Below, in pieces: positions 2,666 through 48,593 of a DNA stretch of 48,593 nucleotides. Numbering within the stretch: the stretch's first letter is position 1; every line of letters begins with the position of its first letter. The translations under genes were made by a program, and so were the position numbers. Source of the stretch: an uncultured bacterium (GTDB taxonomy: Bacteria > Muiribacteriota > UBA6191); contig CAZYUV010000001.1 in NCBI GenBank assembly GCA_964650625.1, positions 1 through 48,593 on the forward strand, in the 5' to 3' direction. The notes beneath the pieces were generated by a model, which saw only the letters and a list, made by a program, of their open reading frames with translations, searched no databases and had not been told where the DNA came from.

Positions 2666-3181
2666 TTGTCTCTAGATACTATGAACGCCGAAGATTTAAT
2701 AAAACATTTTGGATTAGTGCCATTACCTAAAGAAGGCGGATTCTATCTTGAAACTTATCGTAGCCCCGCACAAATTCCAGGGACTATTTTGCCATATCAA
2801 GACTCAAAATCATTCTCAACTGCAATATATTATTGTTTAACTAAAAATACCTTCTCTCACCTGCATCGTCTTCCAACAGATGAAATTTATCATTTTTATT
2901 ATGGTGATCCGGTGGAGTTATTCTTTTTAATTGAAACTCCGACACCTCGCTTTGAGGTACATTTATTAGGAAGCGATTTTATGTCCGGTCACTTACCCCA
3001 AATTAAAGTTCCGGCCAATAGCTGGCAAGGGTCGAGACTAGTTGATGATGGTGAAGTAGCTTTAATGGGCACTACAATGTCACCTGGATTCGATTTTAAA
3101 GACCTTGAACTTGCAGATTATGAAAACCTTAAACGATTGCTGCCAAGAGCAGATTACTGGTTAAAGCTACTTTGTACCTAA
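2666..3181 (+). CDS. cupin superfamily protein, DUF985 (cupin_5) type
   Basis: LIKHFGLVPLPKEGGFYLETYRS matches the conserved N-terminal signature of DUF985 cupins. The track start is TTG; the in-frame ATG at 2681 is more likely. Confidence 0.8.
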   Translation: MSLDTMNAEDLIKHFGLVPLPKEGGFYLETYRSPAQIPGTILPYQDSKSFSTAIYYCLTKNTFSHLHRLPTDEIYHFYYGDPVELFFLIETPTPRFEVHLLGSDFMSGHLPQIKVPANSWQGSRLVDDGEVALMGTTMSPGFDFKDLELADYENLKRLLPRADYWLKLLCT

Positions 3182-3182
3182 A

Positions 3183-4217
3183 CTACCAGTAGTCATTACT
3201 TACCAAAACCCCATTAACCATACTTATGTCTAAACTGTATACCTGAGATATATTTAAATTATTAAGAAACCCAGCAACTAATATGAGGTTACTCACATCC
3301 GTTGCTGCATATTCTCCACCAATATCTTCATCACTAAGATCGTAAGAGTTTTCCAAAGCTTCATTCACAGACCCCAAATCATACACTGGCATATTTACCT
3401 GATTACTAACTGAGTAAGAATGGACTCCTCCTATTCCATATACCCTCGTTCGTGAATCTGCAAGTTTTTGACGGAGTACAGGTGGTACTCGATTGCTAAA
3501 TTCCTCAACGATTAATATTCCTAATTCTCCTTGTTCACGGATGATGGGATTAGGTGATGATATTGTCATTGAATTTTTCATTTGAACCTTATTAATGAAC
3601 ATATTCTTAAAAGAAATACTAGCCAATATAGCCTCAAAGGTAAAAGGTTCAGGGTCCTCGTCGATCATGCTTGAAAACTGCATACTACCGGCTCCAATTT
3701 CCCATACCGCGATATCCTTACGAGGAGTTTGAACAGTTGATCTTACTGCTTCAAAACTTAATTTACCTTTTTGCTTTGGACTAAGAACAAGAAAAGAAAG
3801 ATCAAACCATTTTTGCAGTTTATTGGAAAATTCATTGGCATTTATGGCTCTACGAAACACGGATGTACCCACAGCCAAACTACGCTCCACCTTGTAAGGT
3901 TTCGCAAGATTGAACATTTCTGAAATAATTTGTAATCCTCTCCACATAATCTTCCGGCTCAATTCCTTTTTACCCGATTTAAGAAGATCATCTTGAAAGT
4001 CTATTCTTCGTGAAACTCTCACAAACACATCAGAAATTTTACTGTTACAAAAATCCACCTCAGCTACTGCCATTTTTATAGCGGTAGAACCTAGGTCTAA
4101 AGCCATTCGAACTTCATGACAGTTTTTTGAATGTACTTGCTGCATCAAGCCGAGTATTAAAAAACAGAATAACTTCATTAGATCATTTAGTTTATTTGAA
4201 GAAACAGAGCTTTTCAA
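3183..4217 (-). CDS. Ppx/GppA-family (ASKHA fold) phosphatase-like protein with N-terminal signal peptide or anchor
   Basis: ALDLGSTAIKMAV, AVGTSVFRRAINANEF and WEIGAGSMQFS occur in the order of the Ppx/GppA phosphate-binding motifs. The hydrophobic stretch MKLFCFLILGLMQQVHS precedes the domain. The start may be the ATG at 4178. Confidence 0.6.
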   Translation of the reverse strand: MKSSVSSNKLNDLMKLFCFLILGLMQQVHSKNCHEVRMALDLGSTAIKMAVAEVDFCNSKISDVFVRVSRRIDFQDDLLKSGKKELSRKIMWRGLQIISEMFNLAKPYKVERSLAVGTSVFRRAINANEFSNKLQKWFDLSFLVLSPKQKGKLSFEAVRSTVQTPRKDIAVWEIGAGSMQFSSMIDEDPEPFTFEAILASISFKNMFINKVQMKNSMTISSPNPIIREQGELGILIVEEFSNRVPPVLRQKLADSRTRVYGIGGVHSYSVSNQVNMPVYDLGSVNEALENSYDLSDEDIGGEYAATDVSNLILVAGFLNNLNISQVYSLDISMVNGVLVSNDYW

Positions 4218-4331
4218 CTCATGTTAATTATTCGTTTGACACCTAATTTTAAAATCGTCTTTAAGGAACATCTTTTATTATTTCATGCTGTCAAACTTGC
4301 AAATAGTTTCATTTAAAGTAACCATTTAATT

Positions 4332-4907
4332 ATGTCTAAACCTGTTTATCACAATGCATACTGTGGAATTCAAATTGGACTAGTTCATGCAAGTTTCCCA
4401 TTTACTCGCTTAAGAGTTCATCAAAATAATTTAACTATAGAGTCGCTCATAGGGAATTATTCCTTCTCGGCAGAAAAATTAATCGAAATTGAGTGTAAAT
4501 CGCACTGGATGGGAGCTGAATATATATTGAAGCATTCTCGACCAGATTATCCTCAAGATATACAGCTCGTTTTCTTAAGAAATCAAGGACAAGAGTTCTT
4601 TAAGACAATTGAGCAAAATGGTTTTTTTCCGAAAGGGAAAATTGATGATTTGCCGCTGCCTCGATCACCAATAGCATTTAATATTCCCAGAGTTTTTAGC
4701 TTACTGGTGCTTGTAGTCCAACTGCGTTTACTTCTAAATATGATATTGTTTTGTCTTACGGGAATCTTAATCTGCTACTTGTTTGAAAAAAATAAAACCT
4801 TCCAAAAGTTTTTATTAATGCCTAGCCGTTATTATTCTGAAGTCCAGCATTGGAATCGCTCAGCGACTATTTTCTTTCTAACTTTTTTAGTTTCTGGCTT
4901 GCTCTAA
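4332..4907 (+). CDS. hypothetical membrane protein
   Basis: 191-aa ORF with a soluble N-terminal ~125 aa followed by hydrophobic helices. Its 3' end overlaps the convergent thioesterase gene by 21 nt. Confidence 0.45.
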   Translation: MSKPVYHNAYCGIQIGLVHASFPFTRLRVHQNNLTIESLIGNYSFSAEKLIEIECKSHWMGAEYILKHSRPDYPQDIQLVFLRNQGQEFFKTIEQNGFFPKGKIDDLPLPRSPIAFNIPRVFSLLVLVVQLRLLLNMILFCLTGILICYLFEKNKTFQKFLLMPSRYYSEVQHWNRSATIFFLTFLVSGLL

Positions 4908-5363
4908 ATTGATTAACTCAGGTTTACATTCATCCTGAAAATTTAATATCGACTTGATTAAGTCTGCAGGTACTTTGGCTTTTTCATCCTTGTTGTAGTC
5001 GTAACAAACAATCAATCCGTTTCCATTTGCCGCTAATTTTTGATTTTTAAGAGAAAAAATTGCATGACTTATTTCATAACGGTCGTATTCAATTCTTGAA
5101 ACACAGGCACCTAATAACAATTCATCTGGATAAACTAAAGGTATCCTGTAACGGCAATCTGTAGAGTGTAAGATAGGGCCTAGATTTTGAGATTGCATAA
5201 TATCGAGTACGCCTAATTTCTCAAAGTAAGCAATACGAACACTTTCGAATAGTCTAAAATAAGCCACATTGTTTAAATGCTGAAAGGCATCCATCTCGCC
5301 CCATACTAAACTCTGCTTGAGAGTAAATGGATATTGCTTATTAAACTCAGAAATTTGCATCAA
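4887..5363 (-). CDS. acyl-CoA thioesterase, 4HBT/YbgC-FadM hot-dog family
   Basis: WGEMDAFQHLNNVAYFRLFESVRIAYF matches the catalytic-Asp / H-x-N-N-x-x-Y region of YbgC-type thioesterases. Size of 158 aa is typical. Confidence 0.75.
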   Translation of the reverse strand: MMQISEFNKQYPFTLKQSLVWGEMDAFQHLNNVAYFRLFESVRIAYFEKLGVLDIMQSQNLGPILHSTDCRYRIPLVYPDELLLGACVSRIEYDRYEISHAIFSLKNQKLAANGNGLIVCYDYNKDEKAKVPADLIKSILNFQDECKPELINLEQARN

Positions 5364-5366
5364 CTT

Positions 5367-5654
5367 TTACCAAAGAACATTTCGCTCATCATCACTCTCC
5401 AAAAAGTCTTTCAGATCAAGAGTGGTAGTCTCCCAGGTACGACTCCTGGAGGGCATTTCACATTCTCCACAATTATTGCTACCTGGACCGATATGCTCAA
5501 GCGCTATCATTTTAACTGGATGCAGTGCTACGCAAAGCATATCAGGAAATTCAGGATCTTCACTTACAACCGACACCTTGCGAATTAGAGCGTATTCTTT
5601 ACCGTCAAACTGCGCTATTTCACCATATAGTTTTAAGGTTACTTCGTATTCCAT
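5367..5654 (-). CDS. hypothetical 95-aa protein, last small gene of the AAA/VWA cluster
   Basis: Fits the minus-strand operon with a 10-nt gap after the VWA gene and a 3-nt gap before the thioesterase. The competing plus-strand ORFs (5317-5682, 5334-5588) are Ser/Leu-rich shadows. No domain recognised. Confidence 0.45.
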   Translation of the reverse strand: MEYEVTLKLYGEIAQFDGKEYALIRKVSVVSEDPEFPDMLCVALHPVKMIALEHIGPGSNNCGECEMPSRSRTWETTTLDLKDFLESDDERNVLW

Positions 5655-5664
5655 AACAATTAGT

Positions 5665-6873
5665 TTAGCACTTTACCAGTAGCTTTCGTATGCCATTTTC
5701 TAAACCCTCTAATGTCATCGGGAACATTGGTATTTCGGAACTTATTTTAATTTGAGTTTGAGATTCCCATAGAGTGTCCGGATTTAGCCAAATTATTTTT
5801 GAAAATCTTGCTTTAAGCTGCATTAATCTTTGCCAACCCGTCATACCTTCTAAACTTGAATCGGATCCATAAAATAGATGTCTATAAAAAAATTCCTTAT
5901 CAGCACTTAAGTGAAATAATTCATAAGGTGCCATAGCAGCATCTCCAACAATAATTACACAAGTATCATTATTTAACTGAGTCATCAAATCGTCTAATTC
6001 GACCCCTTCTGTATATTTCATAGTGATATCTGGATAAACTTTGTCATAAAAAATATTATGAAAGTAGTAGTGTTGAAATTCACGAAAATGATTGATTTGA
6101 TGGGCGGCGCTAAATAGTGCAGAAACCATTTCCGCAAAAGGGGTCATACTCCCACCTACGTCGGTAAGTAACAGTAGTTTTAACTGATTTTTTCGGGAGG
6201 CTTTGTAAACTACCTCTACTTCTCCGCCCTGATCGCACGATTTACGGATGCTAGATGGAATATCCAGTTGTGGTCGTCCGGTTCTATGAAGATATCTCAA
6301 TGATTTAAGAACCATCTTCCACTGCCTTATTTCGATAGTGCAATCTTTGCGATACTCCGCAAATTTTCTCTCGCCCGCCACTGCTAATGCCGAGCCATGT
6401 TTAGATTCACCACCTACTCTTATACCCGCAGGATTATAACCACTGTGACCGAAAGCGGAAGTACCGCCAGTCCCTATCCAATAATTTCCACCATCATGCC
6501 GTCCTGTCTGTTCCTCGATTCGTTTTATGAATTCTTTTAGCAAGTTTTCGGATAAAATATTTTGAGCAGCTTCTCTAGCCTCTAGGTTTAACTCCTTTTC
6601 CAATGCGTCATGAAGCCAGTTTTCCAACTGGTTCCTAAATTTCGTATCTAAATTTATAGCTCCGGAAAAACAACGAGAAAATGCAAGGTCAAACCCGTCA
6701 TAATGACTTACATCTTTTACCAAGCTAGCTCTTGCAAGATTATAAAAACGATTAGAATCAAAACTATCATTTGTCTTTAAACTGTAGTCAATTACTTTTA
6801 GAAAGTCTAAATATTCACGTGGTCCAGTAGGAACCCTCTCAGCACGTAAGGTATAAAAAAAGTTGAGAAACAT
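5665..6873 (-). CDS. VWA domain protein, CoxE-like
   Basis: N-terminus MFLNFFYTLRAERVPTGPREYLDFLKV is typical of CoxE-type VWA proteins. The C-terminal VWA has the MIDAS-like sequence LLLLTDVGGSM (DxGxS instead of DxSxS). 11-nt gap to the upstream AAA gene. Confidence 0.7.
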   Translation of the reverse strand: MFLNFFYTLRAERVPTGPREYLDFLKVIDYSLKTNDSFDSNRFYNLARASLVKDVSHYDGFDLAFSRCFSGAINLDTKFRNQLENWLHDALEKELNLEAREAAQNILSENLLKEFIKRIEEQTGRHDGGNYWIGTGGTSAFGHSGYNPAGIRVGGESKHGSALAVAGERKFAEYRKDCTIEIRQWKMVLKSLRYLHRTGRPQLDIPSSIRKSCDQGGEVEVVYKASRKNQLKLLLLTDVGGSMTPFAEMVSALFSAAHQINHFREFQHYYFHNIFYDKVYPDITMKYTEGVELDDLMTQLNNDTCVIIVGDAAMAPYELFHLSADKEFFYRHLFYGSDSSLEGMTGWQRLMQLKARFSKIIWLNPDTLWESQTQIKISSEIPMFPMTLEGLENGIRKLLVKC

Positions 6874-6884
6874 GCTTAATCTGT

Positions 6885-7685
6885 CTAAGAACTTCTTATG
6901 AAATCTTCTTCCGTTTTCATCAATGTACCTAAGAAAGGGATTTTATTACTTATATCCAGATTAACATCTTGATTGATTAAGATACTCAACCAGTCAATTA
7001 ATTCACTGGTGGAAGGCTTTTTACGTATATTTTGCTGATTTCTTAACTGATAAAATATCCTTAGTGAGTTGCGCAAAATATTACTTTCAATTTTAGGAAA
7101 ATGAGATTTTATAATCTTAGTCATAAGTTCCCGATCCGGAAATTGAATGTAATGAAATACACAACGCCTCAAAAAAGCATCTGGCAATTCTTTTTCGTTA
7201 TTGGACGTTATTACTACAAAAGGCCTAATTTTGGCCTGAATTTTTTCACCCGTTTCCAGTATTTCAAATTCCATACGGTCCAATTCTCGCAATAAATCGT
7301 TGGGAAACTCAATGTCAGCCTTGTCTATCTCATCGATCAATAGCACACAAGGGCTATTAAGTGAAAAGGCTTTTCCCATACCCTCTAATTTGATGTAGTT
7401 AGAAATATTTTTGACTTTGTTTAAATTTTGTTCATCCAGATCCAAAAAACGCGAATCGTGAAGCCTAGAAAGAGCGTCATAAGTATACAATCCATCTTTT
7501 GCCAAAGAAGTGGATTTCACATGCCACTCAAATATTGGTAAACCTTTTATTTTGGCAACGTGCTGTGCAAGCAGTGTTTTTCCGGTACCAGGTTCACCTT
7601 TGAGTAGCAGAGGTCTACCAGTAACTTCAGCTACCAAAATAGCTTCTTTTAATTGGTCACACATTACATATTCGAATTCTTGCAT
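6885..7685 (-). CDS. AAA+ ATPase, MoxR-class AAA_5 (CoxD/CbbQ-like)
   Basis: Walker A GEPGTGKT, Walker B VLLIDEIDKA, and VVITSNNEKELPDAFLRRC (sensor and arginine region). 266 aa. Confidence 0.85.
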   Translation of the reverse strand: MQEFEYVMCDQLKEAILVAEVTGRPLLLKGEPGTGKTLLAQHVAKIKGLPIFEWHVKSTSLAKDGLYTYDALSRLHDSRFLDLDEQNLNKVKNISNYIKLEGMGKAFSLNSPCVLLIDEIDKADIEFPNDLLRELDRMEFEILETGEKIQAKIRPFVVITSNNEKELPDAFLRRCVFHYIQFPDRELMTKIIKSHFPKIESNILRNSLRIFYQLRNQQNIRKKPSTSELIDWLSILINQDVNLDISNKIPFLGTLMKTEEDFIRSS

Positions 7686-7705
7686 AATTACTCGCCCACA
7701 TTTAA

Positions 7706-8587
7706 TTAATTTAATATTTTTCTGGCTAATTGCTTAATTCTAGCTAGCCTTTCTGGACCCTTCTTGCCAATCATAGACTCTGCCTCAAAATATTTTAGAG
7801 TTTTTGAGAAATAAATACTTGAGCTACTATGCCCTAAAGCTAACAAATTTTCCGCTATTTCCTCGAATACAATAGCGTCATTTGTTCCAGACTTCTTGTG
7901 CCATTCCTCTTGCGCGCGAAGTTCCAGTAGAGCTTCTTTATGCAATCCTAAAGCTCTTTGAGCAATGCAAATAGAAAGTCGAATATACCTAACCTTCTCA
8001 GCATCGAAAGCCTTCGAAAAAATATCGCAAGCATGCATAAATTGCTCGATTGCTTTTTGATATTCCTGAACCTGTAAATAAGATTCACCAATTTCAATTG
8101 CTAAGTTTCCAATACTAGATTTTAATTCTCCATTATCTGACTTTGTAGCTAAATCTATTCCTTTCAAGCCAAATTCTATTCGTTCATTAATAGAAACCAC
8201 ACTAACAAGCATATTAATTGCATCCATACTTAAATCTTCAGCTTCAATATTAAGAGCTAATTTTAAGGCAAACTTAAAGTAGCGAATTGAATCTTCAGGT
8301 TTGTCATTGAGCATCAAAAGACGTCCCATCTCAAGGTTGTATCTTATTCCTACCAAATCCTTGGATACGCAAGTAGGCGCAAACTCGAGACCAGCTTGAA
8401 TTGAATCCAATATTTTAAATGCCTGAATAAACTTTCCTTGTAGTCCTAAAGCTCTTGCTACCTGTGTTTGCAGCTCCCAAACTTCAAAAGCGGAGTCAGA
8501 GTGTTTTTCCATTTTTTCTCGAAAGTTTTTTTCGCAATTCTGTGGATTAGAAAAATCCCACATATCACTAATTTTTAAACGCATCAA
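7706..8587 (-). CDS. TPR-like helical repeat protein
   Basis: 293-aa all-helical protein with repeated A-x-x-x-Y/F...A-L 34-residue-like units (for example YQKAIEQFMHACDIF and HKEALLELRAQ). Confidence 0.5.
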   Translation of the reverse strand: MMRLKISDMWDFSNPQNCEKNFREKMEKHSDSAFEVWELQTQVARALGLQGKFIQAFKILDSIQAGLEFAPTCVSKDLVGIRYNLEMGRLLMLNDKPEDSIRYFKFALKLALNIEAEDLSMDAINMLVSVVSINERIEFGLKGIDLATKSDNGELKSSIGNLAIEIGESYLQVQEYQKAIEQFMHACDIFSKAFDAEKVRYIRLSICIAQRALGLHKEALLELRAQEEWHKKSGTNDAIVFEEIAENLLALGHSSSSIYFSKTLKYFEAESMIGKKGPERLARIKQLARKILN

Positions 8588-41577: not shown

Positions 41578-42648
41578 GTGTCCAGGCCTCGTATACTAAT
41601 GGTCAGTGTTCGCGCAGACCACGGGGGTGGCCCACGTCACCTTTATCAATTGATAAAAAATCTAAACCATCAATTTGAAATCTTTACTGCTTGCCCTCAC
41701 GAAAAACCGTATTGGGATTTGTTTGAACAAATTTTAGATGAATCTCATATGGAAATAGTCCCGCATCGTCGTTTTCGTTTTGATAAGCTCAACGATTTAG
41801 CAAACTATGCAAAACTAAAAAAAATACAATTAATCCACTCCCATGGAAAAGGAGCTGGTTTATATGGTCGACTGCTGTCTCGCAAAACCGGCATCAAAAG
41901 CGTTCATACCTTTCATGGACTACACTTAGATAACTATAATGCATGGCAAAAATGGCTTTACTTAAAATTAGAGAGATGGCTGTGTTCTCAATCCCAAGCC
42001 TGCATTGCCGTATCGAATTCAGAATATGAACGCGTGCTTGAAAACAAGATAGTTTGTAAAGACAAATTATTCACAATTCTTAATGGTGTATCAGTGGCCA
42101 AAAGAAAGCATCTACTCAGAATGCATAAGCGAGTCATTTGTATTTCAAGGGATGATCCCGCCAAAAATACTGGTTTGATTATCCAAATTGCTAAAATATT
42201 ACCTGATTTCGAATTTAGAATAGTTGGAGTTGAGCCTTCAAAACATTGGAATAAACAATTAGAGGGAATTAATAACATCACCATGATGGGATTAGTGTCG
42301 GAAAATAAAATAATAGAACAAATGCAATGGGCCAGCATTTGTCTAAGTACATCACTATGGGAGGGTTTACCTCTGGCTTTGTTGGAAGCCATGAGTCAAC
42401 AAGTTGCTATTGTAGCTACTCAAGTGCCAGGTAATCGAGACCTAGTTGAAAAAGATGGCTGGATGTTTGAAAGTAATAATCCTCAAGCTGGCGCTAAGGC
42501 TTTGATAGATTGCTTATCTGACTCTCAAATATATGAGAATAAGGTAAGAGACGCCTATGACAAACTAATTAAAAAATACAATGAAACCTTAATGTGCAAA
42601 ATGACTGCCGAACTTTATTTTAATTTACTTAAAAAAAATCGCACCTAA
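41578..42648 (+). CDS. glycosyltransferase family 4
   Basis: RILMVSVRADHGGGPRHLYQL at the N-terminus and SLWEGLPLALLEAMSQQVAIVATQVPGNRDLV (E-x7-E). GTG start directly after the upstream stop. Confidence 0.85.
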   Translation: MSRPRILMVSVRADHGGGPRHLYQLIKNLNHQFEIFTACPHEKPYWDLFEQILDESHMEIVPHRRFRFDKLNDLANYAKLKKIQLIHSHGKGAGLYGRLLSRKTGIKSVHTFHGLHLDNYNAWQKWLYLKLERWLCSQSQACIAVSNSEYERVLENKIVCKDKLFTILNGVSVAKRKHLLRMHKRVICISRDDPAKNTGLIIQIAKILPDFEFRIVGVEPSKHWNKQLEGINNITMMGLVSENKIIEQMQWASICLSTSLWEGLPLALLEAMSQQVAIVATQVPGNRDLVEKDGWMFESNNPQAGAKALIDCLSDSQIYENKVRDAYDKLIKKYNETLMCKMTAELYFNLLKKNRT

Positions 42649-42775
42649 TTACTAGTCAAACGCTAATAAGTTTTGTGTTCGCTACTATTAAATTATTCGA
42701 CCTTGCTTGAGTTAATACTCGATAATACAATGAAGAGTTTAATCATTTTTAACTGAAACAACGAGTGGTTACTTA

Positions 42776-43777
42776 ATGACATATACACTTAAAAACAAAA
42801 CTGTTTTACTGACTGGCGGAGACGGTTTTATAGGGTCTCATTTAGCAGAACACTTGGTAAACCAATGTGCAAAACTGAGAGTATTAACACAATATAACTC
42901 TTACAACTCTTGGGGTTGGCTAGACAATAACCCTCTCACAGAAGATATGGAGATGTGGAACGGTGATATCCGCGACCCTGGTTATTGTCGTAAGTTAGTA
43001 GACGGTGTAGATATTATTTTTCACTTAGCTGCATTAATTGCTATCCCCTATTCTTATCACGCCCCATCCAGTTATATCAATACCAATGTAGTCGGCACAA
43101 CAAATATGCTCGAAGCCGCCTTAGAAAAAGGTATAGAATCTTTTTATCAGACCAGTACTAGCGAGGTTTATGGAACAGCAATCCAAATACCAATTTCAGA
43201 AACCCATCCGTTACAACCTCAATCTCCATACTCTGCTAGCAAAATAGCTAGTGATTCCATAGCCAAATCCTTTTATAGTTCCTTTGAACTCCCGGTAACT
43301 ATTATTCGACCTTTTAATACCTATGGACCTAGACAGTCAGCGCGAGCAGTTATACCTACAATTATTTCTCAAGTTCTTAGTGGAAGCAATCAGCTTAAAT
43401 TAGGAGCTTTAAGTCCAACTCGCGACTTTAATTTTGTATCCGATACATGCCAGGGTTTCATTGATATCGCATTGATGGGAGGTCTACCTGGCGAAGCTAT
43501 AAATATTGGGTCTGGTAGGGAGATTTCGATTGGTGACCTTACACAGCGGCTACTAAGTATTATGAATATGGATCATATGGAAATAGTCTGTCATGAAGAG
43601 AGAATTCGCCCAGAAAAAAGTGAAGTAAATCGCCTTTTAGCAGATCCTACAAAAATTCAGAAATTATGTAATTATAAACCAAAGATTGGTCTAACAAGCG
43701 GTTTAGAACTTACAGTGAAATGGTTTTCCAACCCTAATAATCTTCTTCGATACCGAAGCGGAATATATAATGTTTAA
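42776..43777 (+). CDS. extended SDR NAD-dependent sugar-nucleotide 4,6-dehydratase, LegB-like
   Basis: GGDGFIGSHL Rossmann motif, STSEVYG and YSASK catalytic motifs. QYNSYNSWGWL...FHLAALIAIPYSY...RPFNTYGPRQSARAVIPTII resembles, from memory, the LegB-type GlcNAc-nucleotide 4,6-dehydratases. Confidence 0.75.
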   Translation: MTYTLKNKTVLLTGGDGFIGSHLAEHLVNQCAKLRVLTQYNSYNSWGWLDNNPLTEDMEMWNGDIRDPGYCRKLVDGVDIIFHLAALIAIPYSYHAPSSYINTNVVGTTNMLEAALEKGIESFYQTSTSEVYGTAIQIPISETHPLQPQSPYSASKIASDSIAKSFYSSFELPVTIIRPFNTYGPRQSARAVIPTIISQVLSGSNQLKLGALSPTRDFNFVSDTCQGFIDIALMGGLPGEAINIGSGREISIGDLTQRLLSIMNMDHMEIVCHEERIRPEKSEVNRLLADPTKIQKLCNYKPKIGLTSGLELTVKWFSNPNNLLRYRSGIYNV

Positions 43778-44924
43778 AGAGCTCTTTGATCTAGTTCAAG
43801 ATTTGTATCCTGGAAAATCGCCTATTCCACTTCATGAGCCACTATTAAATGGCAATGAAAAAAAATACTTAAATCTATGCATCGATAGTGGTTACGTTTC
43901 GAGTGTTGGCGAATTCGTCAATCGCTTTGAAAAAGAAATTTCTAACTTAACCGGTAGCAAGAATGCCATAGCAGTAGTTAACGGAACTCAAGCTTTACAT
44001 CTAGCTTTATATACGTTGGGGATAGGCCCTGGAAAAGCTGTATTAGCTCCATCGTTAACATTCGTTGCGACCATAAATTCAATTTATCACAATGGAGCTT
44101 CGCCAATCTTTCTCGATATTGAAGATGAAACTCTTGGAATATGTCCAGATAAAGCTAGAGCTTTTATTCAAAATGAATGCTTTTCCTTAGGGAGCGAACT
44201 AAAGCACAAAGCGTCCGGTCTTACAATAGCAGCTATAATGCCTACCCATGTATTCGGTCATGCTTCACGAATCAAAGAACTTTCAAAGTTAGCTGATGAT
44301 TATTCACTACATTTAATTGAAGATGCCGCTGAAGGCGTAGGTAGTCGGACTAATCAGAAACATTTAGGAACATTCGGTACACTGGGAGTTCTTAGTTTTA
44401 ATGGCAATAAAACATTAACGACTGGAGGAGGGGGTATTGTTCTAACTGAACACAACTCTATTGCGCAACAACTAAAACACTTGTCAACAACAGCACGAGT
44501 TCAATCAGGATATGAGCTGGAACATGATATGCCGGGTTTTAATTATAGAATGCCAAATCTTAACGCAGCATTGGGAATGGCTCAGCTAGAAAGTCTTCCT
44601 CACTTTTTACATAAAAAACGTTCTTTAGCCTTAAATTATCAGCAACTCCAAATTCCGCATTCAAAATGGCTTAAAGAACCTAAAAACAATCAATCAAATT
44701 ACTGGTTAAATGCAATTCAATTGGATAGTGTAAAGCTACGTAATAACCTTCTTAATGATGCCCATAAAAAAGGGATTCTTTGTCGACCCATCTGGAAACC
44801 TATTCATAATATGACCGCCTACGCCAAATTTCCAAAAGACGATCTTTCTACAACAGAAAACTTATCCCTACGTATTGTATGCCTACCAAGTGGCCTCAAA
44901 GGTTTAAACCTAAAATCTTTTTAA
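43770..44924 (+). CDS. DegT/DnrJ/EryC1-type PLP aminotransferase, LegC-family-like
   Basis: NGNEKKYLNLCIDSGYVSSVGEFVNRFE, VNGTQALHLAL and the PLP-lysine region SFNGNKTLTTGGGGIVLT. 8-nt overlap with the dehydratase gene. Confidence 0.85.
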   Translation: MFKELFDLVQDLYPGKSPIPLHEPLLNGNEKKYLNLCIDSGYVSSVGEFVNRFEKEISNLTGSKNAIAVVNGTQALHLALYTLGIGPGKAVLAPSLTFVATINSIYHNGASPIFLDIEDETLGICPDKARAFIQNECFSLGSELKHKASGLTIAAIMPTHVFGHASRIKELSKLADDYSLHLIEDAAEGVGSRTNQKHLGTFGTLGVLSFNGNKTLTTGGGGIVLTEHNSIAQQLKHLSTTARVQSGYELEHDMPGFNYRMPNLNAALGMAQLESLPHFLHKKRSLALNYQQLQIPHSKWLKEPKNNQSNYWLNAIQLDSVKLRNNLLNDAHKKGILCRPIWKPIHNMTAYAKFPKDDLSTTENLSLRIVCLPSGLKGLNLKSF

Positions 44925-46538
44925 TCAAACCGCCTTTTGAAAACTATTTACGGACTCTTTTAACAACCATCCCATAGGAGAATACTCTAAGGTGTAGTGA
45001 ACCTCTTGAACTGATTGTTCACGATGACTTACGCAAATTACAATGGTTTCAGGAATTGCCTTTCTCAACCCTTTCCAAACATTTTTTTCACATAAATAAT
45101 CAAGGCCCGACATGGCTTCATCTAAAATAAGTAAATCAGGTTTTCGTAAGATAGCTCTGGCAAGAGCAATTCGTTGTGCCTCACCGGTGGACAAATTTTT
45201 TCCAGCTTCATAAATTTGGCCATCCAATCCAATTGTTTCTAATATCTCGGAAAAGTATACGCTATGCAAAACATCGATACATTCCTGCTTAGTAACCTGA
45301 TCCGAAAGGGGGTGCCCATAGAGTAAATTGTCACGTAAACTTCCTTGAATTAAACACATCTGATGATTTGCATAGGCAAGTCTTGAGGAGTAATTAATTA
45401 AACAATCTTTGTTATGATTAATAAGAAGCTTATTTTCGAACATTAATTGATCTAAAAAAGTAGTTTTTCCACAACCACTTGGCCCTTTTATCCAAAGTAT
45501 TTCTCCCGACTTTAAGAATAGTTGTTGCCCATCTGGAAACTCGGTACTAACAGAACGAATATTATCTAATGCATTTACTGAAGGTGTTATATCTTCATAT
45601 TCTTTTAAATTAATTGACTCGTCGAATGCTATTTGCATGCTACGAGCCTGACTATAGGCCCCAGAACAATGCGCTAGAGCTTGGGAAAACCGAAGTAATA
45701 TATACGCGAAAGCAATTATTTTCGTTTGATCACTTTGAATACTTGCAAGACAAAGAATCGATATTACAACCAAAAATCCAATTGCTTGTGGGCATGTATT
45801 GGAGAGAGCAAAATCCCTATCTACCTTATAACTAAAATTCAGATAATCCTCGTTTTTCATCTGAATACTGTCTAATTCCCCCTGCTGATTTCCCGTTAAT
45901 TTTAAAAAACGTTGATTCGCCTTTGCGTTTATCAATTTACGATTAAGATCAAACATTGCTTGCAATCGTAAATTTCCTCTGCGCATTACTCGCTTACCCA
46001 ACGAACGTACCATCCATGCAGTACATCCAACCAAAAGTAAGGCTAATCCAAAAAGAGTGCCGCCCAATAGCATCGCTGGAATTAATAAGCACGCTCCTAG
46101 CAAAAAGCGCTGGTAAAACTCGGCCACACTACATAAAAATTGGGCCGAATGTGTTATTCCCTCTTGCAACGCATTTTGTAATTGCGCAGTCGAAATATAA
46201 TCGGGCCTCGAAAATAAACTGGCAGTAACCCAACGAAGTCTTAAGATAGCAGTCGTATTTTCCCTAATACGTGCTAATAATACATGATGAAAAAACTGAA
46301 AAAGTGCTCTTAAGAAGATCATAATACCCAGAATCAAGCCACTAAATAAAATGGTATATTTGGAAGGAAAACTATTATTAGTTATCCATAATGCAAACTC
46401 TTGTAGCTCCCAAGCAAAGATAATTTCTACAACAAAAAGTAAGAATGTAATCGGAAACCAGGCGTAAAATAGCCATTTCAAAGAATCCTGCTGAATTAAA
46501 AAGCGTAATCCTTTTACTAGGGTATTTGTTGTTTTCAT
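44925..46538 (-). CDS. ABC half-transporter (fused permease + ATPase, exporter type)
   Basis: N-terminal ~300 aa with about 5-6 hydrophobic helices. Walker A GPSGCGKTT, signature LSTGEAQRIALARA, Walker B LLILDEA and H-loop VSHR. Confidence 0.9.
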   Translation of the reverse strand: MKTTNTLVKGLRFLIQQDSLKWLFYAWFPITFLLFVVEIIFAWELQEFALWITNNSFPSKYTILFSGLILGIMIFLRALFQFFHHVLLARIRENTTAILRLRWVTASLFSRPDYISTAQLQNALQEGITHSAQFLCSVAEFYQRFLLGACLLIPAMLLGGTLFGLALLLVGCTAWMVRSLGKRVMRRGNLRLQAMFDLNRKLINAKANQRFLKLTGNQQGELDSIQMKNEDYLNFSYKVDRDFALSNTCPQAIGFLVVISILCLASIQSDQTKIIAFAYILLRFSQALAHCSGAYSQARSMQIAFDESINLKEYEDITPSVNALDNIRSVSTEFPDGQQLFLKSGEILWIKGPSGCGKTTFLDQLMFENKLLINHNKDCLINYSSRLAYANHQMCLIQGSLRDNLLYGHPLSDQVTKQECIDVLHSVYFSEILETIGLDGQIYEAGKNLSTGEAQRIALARAILRKPDLLILDEAMSGLDYLCEKNVWKGLRKAIPETIVICVSHREQSVQEVHYTLEYSPMGWLLKESVNSFQKAV

Positions 46539-46583
46539 GCAGAAATTTTACGCTGTGCCAGACTTTAGCACCAGCAATGATTT

Positions 46584-47819
46584 ATGAGTATAATAAACAA
46601 AATGCGATCTACTTCAAATCAGTATAGATATCCATGGACCCTGATCAAAGATGCTTTTGCAGGAAAGTCTGTAGTGGATAGTCGTTGGATGCAGATAAGG
46701 TCCATAAATGATGCGGAAGAAACAATACGTTATTATGGATACGATTGGCAGGCTCAGAATGATCGTAACATATTATTGGAAAGCTATAAAAAGTCCTTAG
46801 ATTTTATAGAGCAATCATTGATCCAAAACTTTCCGGAGCCACTTCGTATACATTCAGAGGTAAAGGAGAGTAACGATCTTAGACAGGTCTTGTATTGGAC
46901 AAATCCACGCACAAGAAATAAAGAAGTTCAACTTTGGTCATGTGCAGTATTAAAAGTACTTCACACTATTCTTCATCTTGAAAACGATTTTTTATATGAC
47001 CATTTTCAGGAGGCAAGAAGTCAAATTTTTGAGCGATTTCATGGACATCTGTATATCGATGAAAATAATCATATTTATTTTGGAAAAGATCCATCAAAAT
47101 TCATACCGCTATATTATTTCGAAGTAAAACGAGAAAAGGATTGGAAATCAAAATTAATCAAACTTTTACAAAAACCAGAGAATACAGCAACTCGAATCTT
47201 TGATCATATAGGTGTTCGTATGGTCACAGAAAATTTGCTGGATGTGTTACAAATTTTCAATTATCTACTCATAAGTAAAATTTTTATATTTGCGAATATC
47301 ACACCATCTCGTTCTAGAAATACATTGCTGGACATTGATGCTTGTCAAAAATACATAAATCGCGTTTTACGACAGGTAAGCTCCGGCAAATTAAACCAGG
47401 AAGATCTTGATAAAAAAATATATTCAAAATATAACTATGAAGAACTTCTTATTGATGATCCTCTGCCGGATAACCCCTATTCTCTTGATCACTTTCGTTC
47501 AATTCAGTTTACATGCAGGCATCTTGTTCGTTTTGCCAATCCCACCTATATTCAAATGATGGATTTAAGACAGCATATGTTTGTAGATCATATTCCTCCT
47601 CATAGTATTCAGGAGTTAGATCAAATTTTATCTGGCATTAAGCGTGAAATTAAATTTTTTTTCCCATTTGAAATTCAAATAATGGATAAACAAACTTTTC
47701 TAATTAACCAAAAAGGCTTAGGTTCCCATGCAGAGTATAAACAAAATCAATTGGAAGCTGCACGAAAAAGAGTTTTAGGAAAATTACTTGAACCATACAA
47801 TAGTCAAGGAGCACAATGA
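46584..47819 (+). CDS. divergent RelA/SpoT-synthetase-fold (alarmone synthetase-like) nucleotidyl/pyrophosphotransferase
   Basis: R183-E-K-D-W-K-S-K-L-I-K193 (RxKxxxSxxxK), D207-HIGVR212 (DxxGxR), F305-RSIQF, and FEIQI...GSHAEYK (aa 362-386) occur in the same order as the SYNTH-domain motifs of RelQ/RelA. Large insertions separate them, and there is an extra ~170-aa N-terminal region. Confidence 0.6.
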   Translation: MSIINKMRSTSNQYRYPWTLIKDAFAGKSVVDSRWMQIRSINDAEETIRYYGYDWQAQNDRNILLESYKKSLDFIEQSLIQNFPEPLRIHSEVKESNDLRQVLYWTNPRTRNKEVQLWSCAVLKVLHTILHLENDFLYDHFQEARSQIFERFHGHLYIDENNHIYFGKDPSKFIPLYYFEVKREKDWKSKLIKLLQKPENTATRIFDHIGVRMVTENLLDVLQIFNYLLISKIFIFANITPSRSRNTLLDIDACQKYINRVLRQVSSGKLNQEDLDKKIYSKYNYEELLIDDPLPDNPYSLDHFRSIQFTCRHLVRFANPTYIQMMDLRQHMFVDHIPPHSIQELDQILSGIKREIKFFFPFEIQIMDKQTFLINQKGLGSHAEYKQNQLEAARKRVLGKLLEPYNSQGAQ

Positions 47820-48592
47820 ATCAGGTAAAAAGTTTTCTGGATGAGCTTTTAGAGGAACCACATCCATTAATAAATTTAGATCAAGCTCAGGAGTGGAACG
47901 ATTGTGAGTTTGTCGATAGATTTTTTGATTCCAGTAGAGACGGATTTTATGATCTAGAAGATGAAACAAAGTTTGTACAAAATCAACTCACCGATGGGCC
48001 TTTTCTAGACTTGGGGAGTGGTAGAGAAAGACTGGCTGCACCACTATCAGAGAAAATCAAAGGTTTCGCCTTGGATAAGAGTCTTGTTAGTCTTCGCGGA
48101 AATCAAATACCCAGTATATGCGCTGACTATCATAAACTACCCTTAAAAGGTCAATTTGGTTCCATCTTATTAGCTTATGGGCAAATTTGCTTTTGTGAAA
48201 AACCAAAGCTAATCGATTTATTAAAACGCTGTAAAAAAATACTTAAACGAAAAGGTAAAATATATCTCGATTTGCCAACTATCGATGCCATTCAATCCAT
48301 GCACTCTTACGGCGAATGGGAATTTGTAGACACAAGTAAACATCAACTACTTTTTACTGCGCGTCATTACGATCCAGATAGTGGTATTTTTTCACAAAAA
48401 TTATTAAACATAAATCGTATAAGCGGTAACTTAAAGACTCGTTGGATTCATTATCAAATGTATTCTTTATATGAATTACTAGAACTTTTCAAAGACCTGC
48501 GTTTACAGGTAAATTATGGTGCCGAAGATTTTGATGAATCACCTATTAAGGAGGAGTCCCCATGGATGATATTCGTACTCCAAAAACCTTGA
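47816..48592 (+). CDS. class I SAM-dependent methyltransferase-like protein
   Basis: ATGA overlap with the upstream gene. Motif-I-like FLDLGSGRERLAAPL, then ILLAYGQICF and KGKIYLDLP. The stop lies at the very end of the window. Confidence 0.6.
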   Translation: MNQVKSFLDELLEEPHPLINLDQAQEWNDCEFVDRFFDSSRDGFYDLEDETKFVQNQLTDGPFLDLGSGRERLAAPLSEKIKGFALDKSLVSLRGNQIPSICADYHKLPLKGQFGSILLAYGQICFCEKPKLIDLLKRCKKILKRKGKIYLDLPTIDAIQSMHSYGEWEFVDTSKHQLLFTARHYDPDSGIFSQKLLNINRISGNLKTRWIHYQMYSLYELLELFKDLRLQVNYGAEDFDESPIKEESPWMIFVLQKP

Positions 48593-48593
48593 A

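Follow-up and report, generated by a model that had tools for sequence, protein, structure and literature searches.

RelA/SpoT homolog (RSH) synthetases share the SYNTH fold, which is found in the long Rel and RelA enzymes, in the small alarmone synthetases (SASs) RelP and RelQ, and in the toxSAS toxins (FaRel, FaRel2, PhRel, and CapRel). Two residues of RelSeq, D264 and E323, are essential for synthetase activity. The RSH classification of 2011 entered Bdellovibrio bacteriovorus with Rel only, and gave Myxococcus xanthus and Sorangium one unclassified 'SYNTH[S]' entry each. We analyzed a 48,593-nt stretch of DNA from an uncultured bacterium (contig CAZYUV010000001.1, forward strand; the whole stretch is called the window below). 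Near its 3' end is a gene for an RSH-like protein (46584-47819, + strand; an open reading frame [ORF] of 411 aa), followed by a gene for a methyltransferase. An initial annotation had read the two as a possible signaling or toxin-like module. Our preferred reading, which we hold with moderate confidence, is that the RSH-like protein is an RSH-fold pyrophosphotransferase of the TIGR04552/TIGR04562 family and not a toxSAS, and that the methyltransferase is not its conserved partner.

We found that the RSH-like protein is a full-length, ordinary member of the TIGR04552/TIGR04562 family. It matched the NCBIfam model TIGR04562 with 312.6 bits (cutoff 140; E=3.6e-93), residues 18-398 aligning to profile positions 2-355 of 356, and TIGR04552 with 293 bits (cutoff 125). 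It is of the same length class as the rest of the family and has the same invariant motifs, and nothing notable differs. Both models are titled just 'TIGR04552 family protein' and represent a conserved hypothetical family curated without a function. The initial annotation had suggested that the protein could be an uncharacterized enzyme. This holds in that no function is assigned, but the protein belongs to a family that had already been curated.

The family is real and of moderate size. A word-indexed search found 198 homologs, several of them annotated with TIGR04552 or TIGR04562 names. An exhaustive profile search over 1.84 billion representatives found 873 clusters (at ~50% identity) at E≤1e-3, of which 635 remained at E≤1e-10, and the family profile did not draw in the far larger set of canonical RSHs. 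A genome scan found at least 567 loci. Counts of neighboring genes below are from the best 80 of these, of which 78 have at least 1 kb of downstream sequence. The best 80 loci are mainly from Bdellovibrionota (Bdellovibrionia, Bacteriovoracia, and Oligoflexia) and Myxococcota, and also include Bradymonadia, Eremiobacterota/Vulcanimicrobiota, and one metagenome-assembled genome (MAG) labeled 'Cyanobacteria'. Nearest to the window in the genome scan were an uncultured bacterium at 92% identity and, at 47-52%, MAGs labeled Cloacimonadota or UBP17. Cluster members place the window lineage as a marine (Tara Oceans) uncultured bacterium.

In the literature searched, the family name was attached to two genes, both in passing. 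DOE51_RS08710 of Bdellovibrio sp. NC01 was mutated in an evolved strain, and MXAN_4858 of M. xanthus lies near the gliding G1 cluster and has a mild developmental fitness pattern. The name 'TIGR04562' was not mentioned in the literature searched, and the family is not a named SAS subfamily in the 2011 classification. The 'SYNTH[S]' entry of M. xanthus, YP_633016.1, is probably MXAN_4858, based on the offset between YP accessions and locus tags. A few members would thus have been noticed earlier as unplaced, divergent synthetase-domain proteins.

Several comparisons support the RelA/SpoT SYNTH fold that the initial annotation had proposed for the RSH-like protein. We used 56 diverse family members (~30% overall identity) for domain searches and, as alignment columns, for all counts of residue conservation. 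Fifty of the 56 matched the Pfam domain RelA_SpoT (PF04607) with E-values of 0.01 or lower, the best being 1.8e-9; this was the only domain to recur. A profile of the family (alignment A1) matched RelSeq (1vj7, E=1e-3) and B. subtilis RelP (6fgk, E=2e-3) in PDB, and also M. tuberculosis Rel (5xnx) and RelA. These matches form two collinear blocks holding D264 and E323. Local hhalign comparisons to two Rel SYNTH sequences gave the same two blocks (E=2.4e-4 for the E motif and 0.009 for the D motif) and did not recover the G-loop; in global mode, hhalign forced these sequences into an alignment without meaning. Matches in PDB depended on the family profile, as a single-sequence phmmer search of PDB sequences gave nothing meaningful.

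The predicted structure agrees with the profile matches. An AlphaFold2 model built on alignment A1 had a mean predicted local distance difference test score (pLDDT) of 90.7 and a predicted template modeling score (pTM) of 0.85. The top 43 Foldseek matches of this model in PDB were all RelP, RelQ, Rel, or RelA, with no other nucleotidyltransferase family among them. The best had E=2.7e-4, a probability of 1.00, and a target-normalized TM score of 0.51. Elements in the model are in SYNTH order (beta 174-181, helix 187-196, beta 210-215, helix 220-230, beta 307-318, beta 355-368, helix 382-410), with each motif inside the expected element. Together, these results indicate that TIGR04552/TIGR04562 is a deep, divergent branch of the RSH SYNTH fold.

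We found that the residues expected to bind ATP phosphates and Mg2+ are conserved. The four motifs picked out in the initial annotation are all encoded, in the order it had claimed. The first, R183-x-K185-xxx-S189-xxx-K193-xxx-K197 (REKDWKSKLIKLLQK; 47130-47174, + strand), is the ATP-phosphate-binding motif and lies on beta1 and the next helix. Its K185, S189, and K193 are the counterparts of RelSeq K243, S247, and K251, and the motif also aligns to RVKSFESIVNKLMRK of RelP. All 56 members have K185, K193, and K197, and 55 have S189; R183 varies. The second, DHIGVR (47202-47219), is the motif of the Mg2+-binding Asp. D207 corresponds to RelSeq D264 in the profile alignment to 1vj7; D207 and G210 are invariant, and R212 is found in 54/56. 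The third, FRSIQFT (47493-47513; family consensus YRSIQFT), resembles a G-loop and is directly before beta3 (strand 307-318). Residue 304 is Tyr in 46 and Phe, as in the window protein, in 9 of the 56; Q308 is present in 55, and T310 is invariant. The fourth (47670-47741) is made up of the catalytic strand EIQIMD (47670-47687) and the helix with H382, Y385, and K386 (HAEYK, 47727-47741). E363 corresponds to RelSeq E323 (alignment to 1vj7 321-350). E363, Q365, D368, and Y385 are invariant, and K386 is present in 55/56.

These motifs are not chance matches, given the TIGR04562 match and the invariant or nearly invariant motif residues in the homologs. That the ATP-phosphate and Mg2+ residues have been kept at ~30% overall identity leads us to infer an active, ATP-dependent pyrophosphotransferase.

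The RSH-like protein also departs from canonical synthetases. It shares with RelP/RelQ and with the SYNTH domains of Rel/RelA the fold, the strand order, the ATP-binding Lys/Ser/Lys set, the Mg2+-binding Asp, the catalytic Glu-x-Gln, and the C-terminal H..YK helix. In contrast, EIQIRT is replaced by EIQIMD and YxSLH by Y/F-RSIQ, sequence similarity is marginal, and three segments are added: a helical N-terminus and insertions of 46 and 34 residues. Unlike long RSHs, it has no HD, TGS, or ACT domains, and it is far larger than the solved RelP and RelQ chains (~180-200 residues). The extra N-terminal region of ~170 aa seen in the initial annotation (approximately residues 1-170; 46584-47093, + strand) is an all-helical, family-specific domain in the AlphaFold model. 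Within it, D32, Y51, G52, H127, and H131 are invariant, and W118 and C120 nearly so. No Pfam domain was found in this region in the window protein or the 56 members. We considered a degenerate HD hydrolase domain and rejected it, as there was no Pfam HD match in the 56 members and no HD doublet motif.

Both insertions are within the SYNTH core. Insertion 1 (residues 251-296, 46 residues; 47334-47471, + strand) has helices at 251-266, 272-281, and 285-288 in the model and separates the G-loop from PSRSRNTL, a motif specific to the family. It is flanked by R243 and N246 (of PSRSRNTL) and N297, all three invariant. It would adjoin the expected acceptor site, where RSH enzymes bind the acceptor nucleotide. 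Insertion 2 (residues 319-352, 34 residues; 47538-47639, + strand) is a two-helix hairpin (320-334 and 339-350) between beta3 and beta4. It is absent or shorter in many members, whose profile matches break into two stretches and leave out positions ~313-340. Because of the two insertions, the Asp-to-G-loop distance (D207-F304) is 97 residues compared to 44 in RelSeq, and the G-loop-to-Glu distance (F304-E363) is 59 compared to 15, where Y308 is what we take to be the G-loop position of RelSeq. The distance from K185 to D207 is canonical (22 compared to 21). The initial annotation had described motif spacings roughly twice those of small synthetases; the two G-loop spacings are indeed wider, but the excess is uneven and does not extend to the Lys-to-Asp spacing.

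In our preferred reading, the core (beta1-helix-beta2-helix-G-loop/beta3-beta4-helix) would carry the ATP-phosphate Lys/Ser/Lys set, D207, and E363. The helical N-terminal domain and the two insertions would decorate this core, with insertion 251-296 beside the expected acceptor pocket. The protein would be an active, cytoplasmic, chromosomally native pyrophosphotransferase and a signaling enzyme resembling alarmone synthetases, with ATP as the donor of the beta,gamma-pyrophosphate and a nucleotide-type acceptor that receives it at its 3'-OH. The acceptor is not readable from sequence and may not be GDP or GTP.

Several findings weigh against this reading. In the window protein itself, RelA_SpoT matched residues 182-228 with 24.3 bits (E=4e-5), below the gathering cutoff of 27, and over just the first 46 of 113 profile positions. 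The equivalence of FRSIQFT and YxSLH, the G-loop motif whose Tyr...His stacks on the acceptor base in RSH synthetases, comes from motif order and predicted topology and not from a significant alignment. The Arg and Thr of EIQIRT are replaced by M367 and D368, the G-loop His by Gln, and, in the window protein, the Tyr by Phe. These substitutions indicate that the chemistry or the acceptor could differ from those of canonical synthetases. The family is uncharacterized, and the literature mentions it only in passing. Lastly, the order of the RSH-like gene, the methyltransferase gene, and a third gene persists in relatives from 99% to 62% identity, in one of them (L085) despite different upstream genes, so a lineage-specific functional link is possible.

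We found that the methyltransferase is a recent, lineage-specific neighbor of the RSH-like gene and not a conserved partner. The three-gene order is present in relatives whose RSH-like proteins are 92% (L001), 88% (L081 and L082), 79% (L083), and 62% (L085) identical to that of the window. In contrast, there is no methyltransferase gene in relatives at 61%, 60%, 52%, and 47% identity (L090, L084, L091, and L086, respectively), which include sister relatives at ~60% identity (P0008 and P0009). Using tblastn and a hidden Markov model (HMM) of the methyltransferase family, we found a methyltransferase beside the family gene in only 1 of the 78 loci with enough downstream sequence (L001). The overlap of stop and start codons is found only in the window among the loci compared: the two genes are separated by 8 nt in L081-L083 and directly abut in L085. 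In a neighbor-joining tree, the methyltransferase-linked protein P0006 groups with P0009 and P0007, which are linked to genes for TolC-like outer-membrane efflux proteins (OEPs), indicating that the linkage to the methyltransferase is labile. The initial annotation had suggested checking whether the pair is conserved across genomes; at the level of the family it is not, which argues against the methyltransferase as a functional partner or neutralizer of the RSH-like protein.

The methyltransferase instead has a different partner. Its ORF (47816-48592, + strand; 258 aa) has its own AAGGAG Shine-Dalgarno sequence and encodes an S-adenosylmethionine-dependent methyltransferase, as the initial annotation had proposed; it is of class I, with a Rossmann-type fold. 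It matched Pfam Methyltransf_11 with 21.5 bits (cutoff 21.2) and a UbiG-like PDB entry (9rfr) in a profile search (E=1.7e-12). The glycine-rich motif I (LDLGSG) is at residues 64-69, and D87, taken as the acidic residue after beta2, is invariant. A structure model (pLDDT 85) gave CcbJ as a Foldseek match (E=6.4e-18, TM ~0.68), as well as CypM, PsmD, TylM1, and glycine-sarcosine methyltransferase. It shares the Rossmann-type core, the C-terminal beta-sheet cap, and the LDLGxG motif with CcbJ, CypM, PsmD, TylM1, and UbiG-like proteins, and is just 12-18% identical to these small-molecule and peptide N-, C-, and O-methyltransferases. Its own family is very narrow, with 16 homologous clusters found. 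Homologs at 42-45% identity (L087, L088, and L089) have no RSH-like gene nearby.

The gene downstream of the methyltransferase encodes a protein of ~280 aa and overlaps the methyltransferase 3' end by ~30 nt, with or without an RSH-like gene upstream. In the window, it starts at 48562 (+ strand; MDDIRTPKTL...), overlaps the methyltransferase gene by 31 nt, has a AAGGAGGAG Shine-Dalgarno sequence at 48548-48556, and continues past the window end at 48593; its length is that of its homologs. These have the N-terminus MDD[IL]R... and are in L082 (9961-10809), L083 (9964-10821), L085 (7965-8810), L087 (6726-7589), L088 (6744-7583), and L089 (2786-3619). The proteins from these six loci are homologous (27-36% identity, E down to 1e-57). 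Searches of Pfam, NCBIfam, and PDB with the ~280-aa protein gave no match, and the only homologous clusters found, 10 in number, all lack annotation. We conclude that the methyltransferase and the ~280-aa gene are a two-gene module of their own, placed downstream of the RSH-like gene in the window lineage. There, the module is probably co-transcribed with the RSH-like gene.

These findings bear on an alternative that we consider unlikely, that the three genes make up a lineage-specific operon whose products share one pathway. One example would be the methylation or sensing of a nucleotide or small molecule that had been pyrophosphorylated. The persistence of the gene order, including in L085, is consistent with such a pathway. 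So are genes that abut or overlap with no terminator-like site between them, and a methyltransferase that resembles small-molecule N-, C-, or O-methyltransferases. However, the methyltransferase and ~280-aa genes are found alone in L087-L089. In MAG JACFNL01, they (L088) are on a different contig from the RSH-like gene (L003) and are thus unlinked. The labile linkage in the tree, the sister relatives at ~60% identity that have no methyltransferase, and the 77 of 78 family loci with none also argue against a shared pathway.

A bolder version of our preferred reading is, we think, rather improbable. Here, the family would be an active branch of RSH enzymes that the RSH field has not recognized, with a pocket that may be remodeled by the 46-residue insertion and by R243, N246, and N297. 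Its non-canonical product, whether a modified RNA, a modified metabolite, or a new alarmone, may give Bdellovibrionota, Myxococcota, and the marine lineage of the window a second signal of the stringent type. In the window lineage, the methyltransferase and ~280-aa protein could handle that product.

It is also doubtful that the RSH-like fold has another activity or has lost activity, as a nucleotidyltransferase, another phosphotransferase, or a non-catalytic regulator that binds nucleotides. This would fit the changes from EIQIRT to EIQIMD and from His to Gln in the G-loop, the marginal similarity to canonical RSHs, and the large family-specific additions with their own invariant residues (H127, H131, R243, N246, and N297). 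In contrast, every known ATP-phosphate and Mg2+ residue is invariant or nearly so, which argues for retained catalysis of the same type, and the top structural neighbors include no other nucleotidyltransferase family.

Gene neighborhoods elsewhere in the family differ from phylum to phylum. Of 35 Bdellovibrionota loci, 33 have an overlap of 4-26 nt between the family gene and a gene of ~400-460 aa in which only an FAD-type N-terminal motif is recognizable. A gene for a ~680-aa 4Fe-4S/2Fe-2S protein comes after the FAD-type gene, and divergent pgpA and recA are upstream. Examples are L009 (5875-7215 and 7199-8578), L011-L017, and about 25 more loci, with a further example at 8362-10416 of L007. 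This arrangement looks like a conserved operon. Neither the FAD-like (+1) nor the Fe-S (+2) neighbor was found in the window or in L081-L089, and no neighbor was common across phyla among the best 80 loci. These differing neighbors fit a native enzyme that was recruited into different operons, and not a toxin-antitoxin cassette.

It is very unlikely that the RSH-like protein is a toxSAS-like toxin neutralized by the adjacent methyltransferase, as the overlapping bicistronic arrangement in the window and the RSH fold had made it appear. The toxSAS proteins share the SYNTH fold, but the window alone has the overlapping arrangement, which even close relatives do not keep. Unlike toxSAS, the family has no conserved cognate neighbor and no mobile or defense context: the methyltransferase is beside the family gene in a single locus, pairs with another gene, and is found without an RSH-like gene. 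Neither the RSH-like protein nor the products of the methyltransferase and third genes had a match in PADLOC. A Foldseek search of BFVD viral structures gave nothing significant (a phage RelA/SpoT protein had E=0.42). Composition is native, with an even G+C content of 33-37% across the window, and orthologs are in housekeeping synteny or overlap the FAD-type oxidoreductase-like gene of Bdellovibrionota. The protein is also much larger than RelP or RelQ and has a conserved extra domain. The toxin-like module of the initial annotation is thus largely refuted.

Exporter-type genes are found beside some members. An ABC exporter gene (44925-46538, - strand; 537 aa; MsbA/PglK/CydDC-like) is divergent from the RSH-like gene in the window; this neighbor is retained just in relatives that are at least 79% identical. 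The sister clade (47-61% identity) has a gene for a TolC-like OEP immediately upstream and on the same strand, as in L002-L005, L084 (4344-5816), L086 (4544-6004), and L090 (3484-4950); the L086 copy and the RSH-like gene overlap by 4 nt. The upstream gene of L091 is cut by the contig end. Downstream in L086 and L091 are a convergent epimerase-like gene and then a phosphoglucomutase-type gene. Exported alarmone synthetases are known and use Sec, type III, type VI, or type VII secretion, extracellular contractile injection systems (eCIS), or MuF routes, with no type I route among those described (PMC12691689). Export of the RSH-like protein through the ABC exporter or the TolC-like OEP is highly improbable, since its N-terminus read by eye shows no evident signal peptide or hydrophobic segment, Pfam finds only RelA_SpoT and no secretion-recognition domain in it or in the 56 members, no gene for a membrane-fusion protein is adjacent, the ABC protein is at the end of a sugar-biosynthesis cluster, and most of the family (Bdellovibrionota and Myxococcota) has no exporter neighbor.

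The ABC exporter gene is the final gene of a glycan cluster that precedes the RSH-like gene. The other genes of this cluster, all on the + strand, are for a GT4 glycosyltransferase (41578-42648), a LegB-like 4,6-dehydratase (42776-43777; 453 bits, slightly under the 475-bit cutoff), and a LegC aminotransferase (43770-44924; 468 bits, above its cutoff). The cluster (41578-44924 on the + strand and 44925-46538 on the - strand) points to a legionaminic-acid-type sugar pathway that ends beside the RSH-like gene. The exporter matched the PADLOC models mad3 (E=1.9e-21) and mad8; these matches most likely reflect a generic ABC ATPase domain and not a function in defense. In L082, genes for a glycosyltransferase, an epimerase, LegC, and the ABC exporter are split; compared over 3069-7747, they are mostly less so in the near-identical L081, where LegC and the ABC exporter are intact. 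The splits in L082 probably stem from frameshifts introduced during assembly or polishing and not from pseudogenization.

The start of the RSH-like gene is probably downstream of the start of the 411-aa ORF. The 411-aa ORF, the ATGA at 47816-47819 that is common to its stop and the methyltransferase start, and the 45-bp gap to the divergent ABC exporter gene (46539-46583) are all as the initial annotation had given them. However, gene callers in public data chose a 405-aa form starting at ATG 46602, which is probably the true product and makes the gap 63 bp. In this intergenic region (46539-46601), there is a promoter-like TTAGCA-18-TATAAT on the + strand (46565-46594; 10/12 match), which would start a transcript at about ATG 46602. 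Its -10 box TATAAT (46589-46594) falls within the first codons of the 411-aa reading, which suggests a leaderless transcript from ATG 46602. We call this promoter only tentatively, because promoter-like sites in the region were not above the shuffled expectation. There were no terminator-like sites in 46300-48593, and thus none between the RSH-like and methyltransferase genes. An Rfam scan of the window gave no RNA family matches.

Other features were noted in the relatives. There is a weak match to an ATP/ADP translocase (TLC) at 1864-3372 of L090, and there are Sel1-repeat proteins at ~13184-15170 of L081, L082, and L083. Contigs of 1.2-1.4 Mb from the relatives could be small genomes that are nearly complete. 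Taken together, the features hint at a host-associated lifestyle of the marine lineage.

The main value of the window is negative: what appeared to be a toxin and methyltransferase pair is a lineage-specific juxtaposition and not a module. The interest rests in the family itself, a widespread, conserved, and probably active RSH-like enzyme with a remodeled acceptor side. If the family is active, then bacteria such as Bdellovibrio, for which the 2011 classification gives Rel as the only RSH, would have a second enzyme resembling alarmone synthetases. The search for new nucleotide signals would then have a defined target in an active site that is conserved but remodeled.

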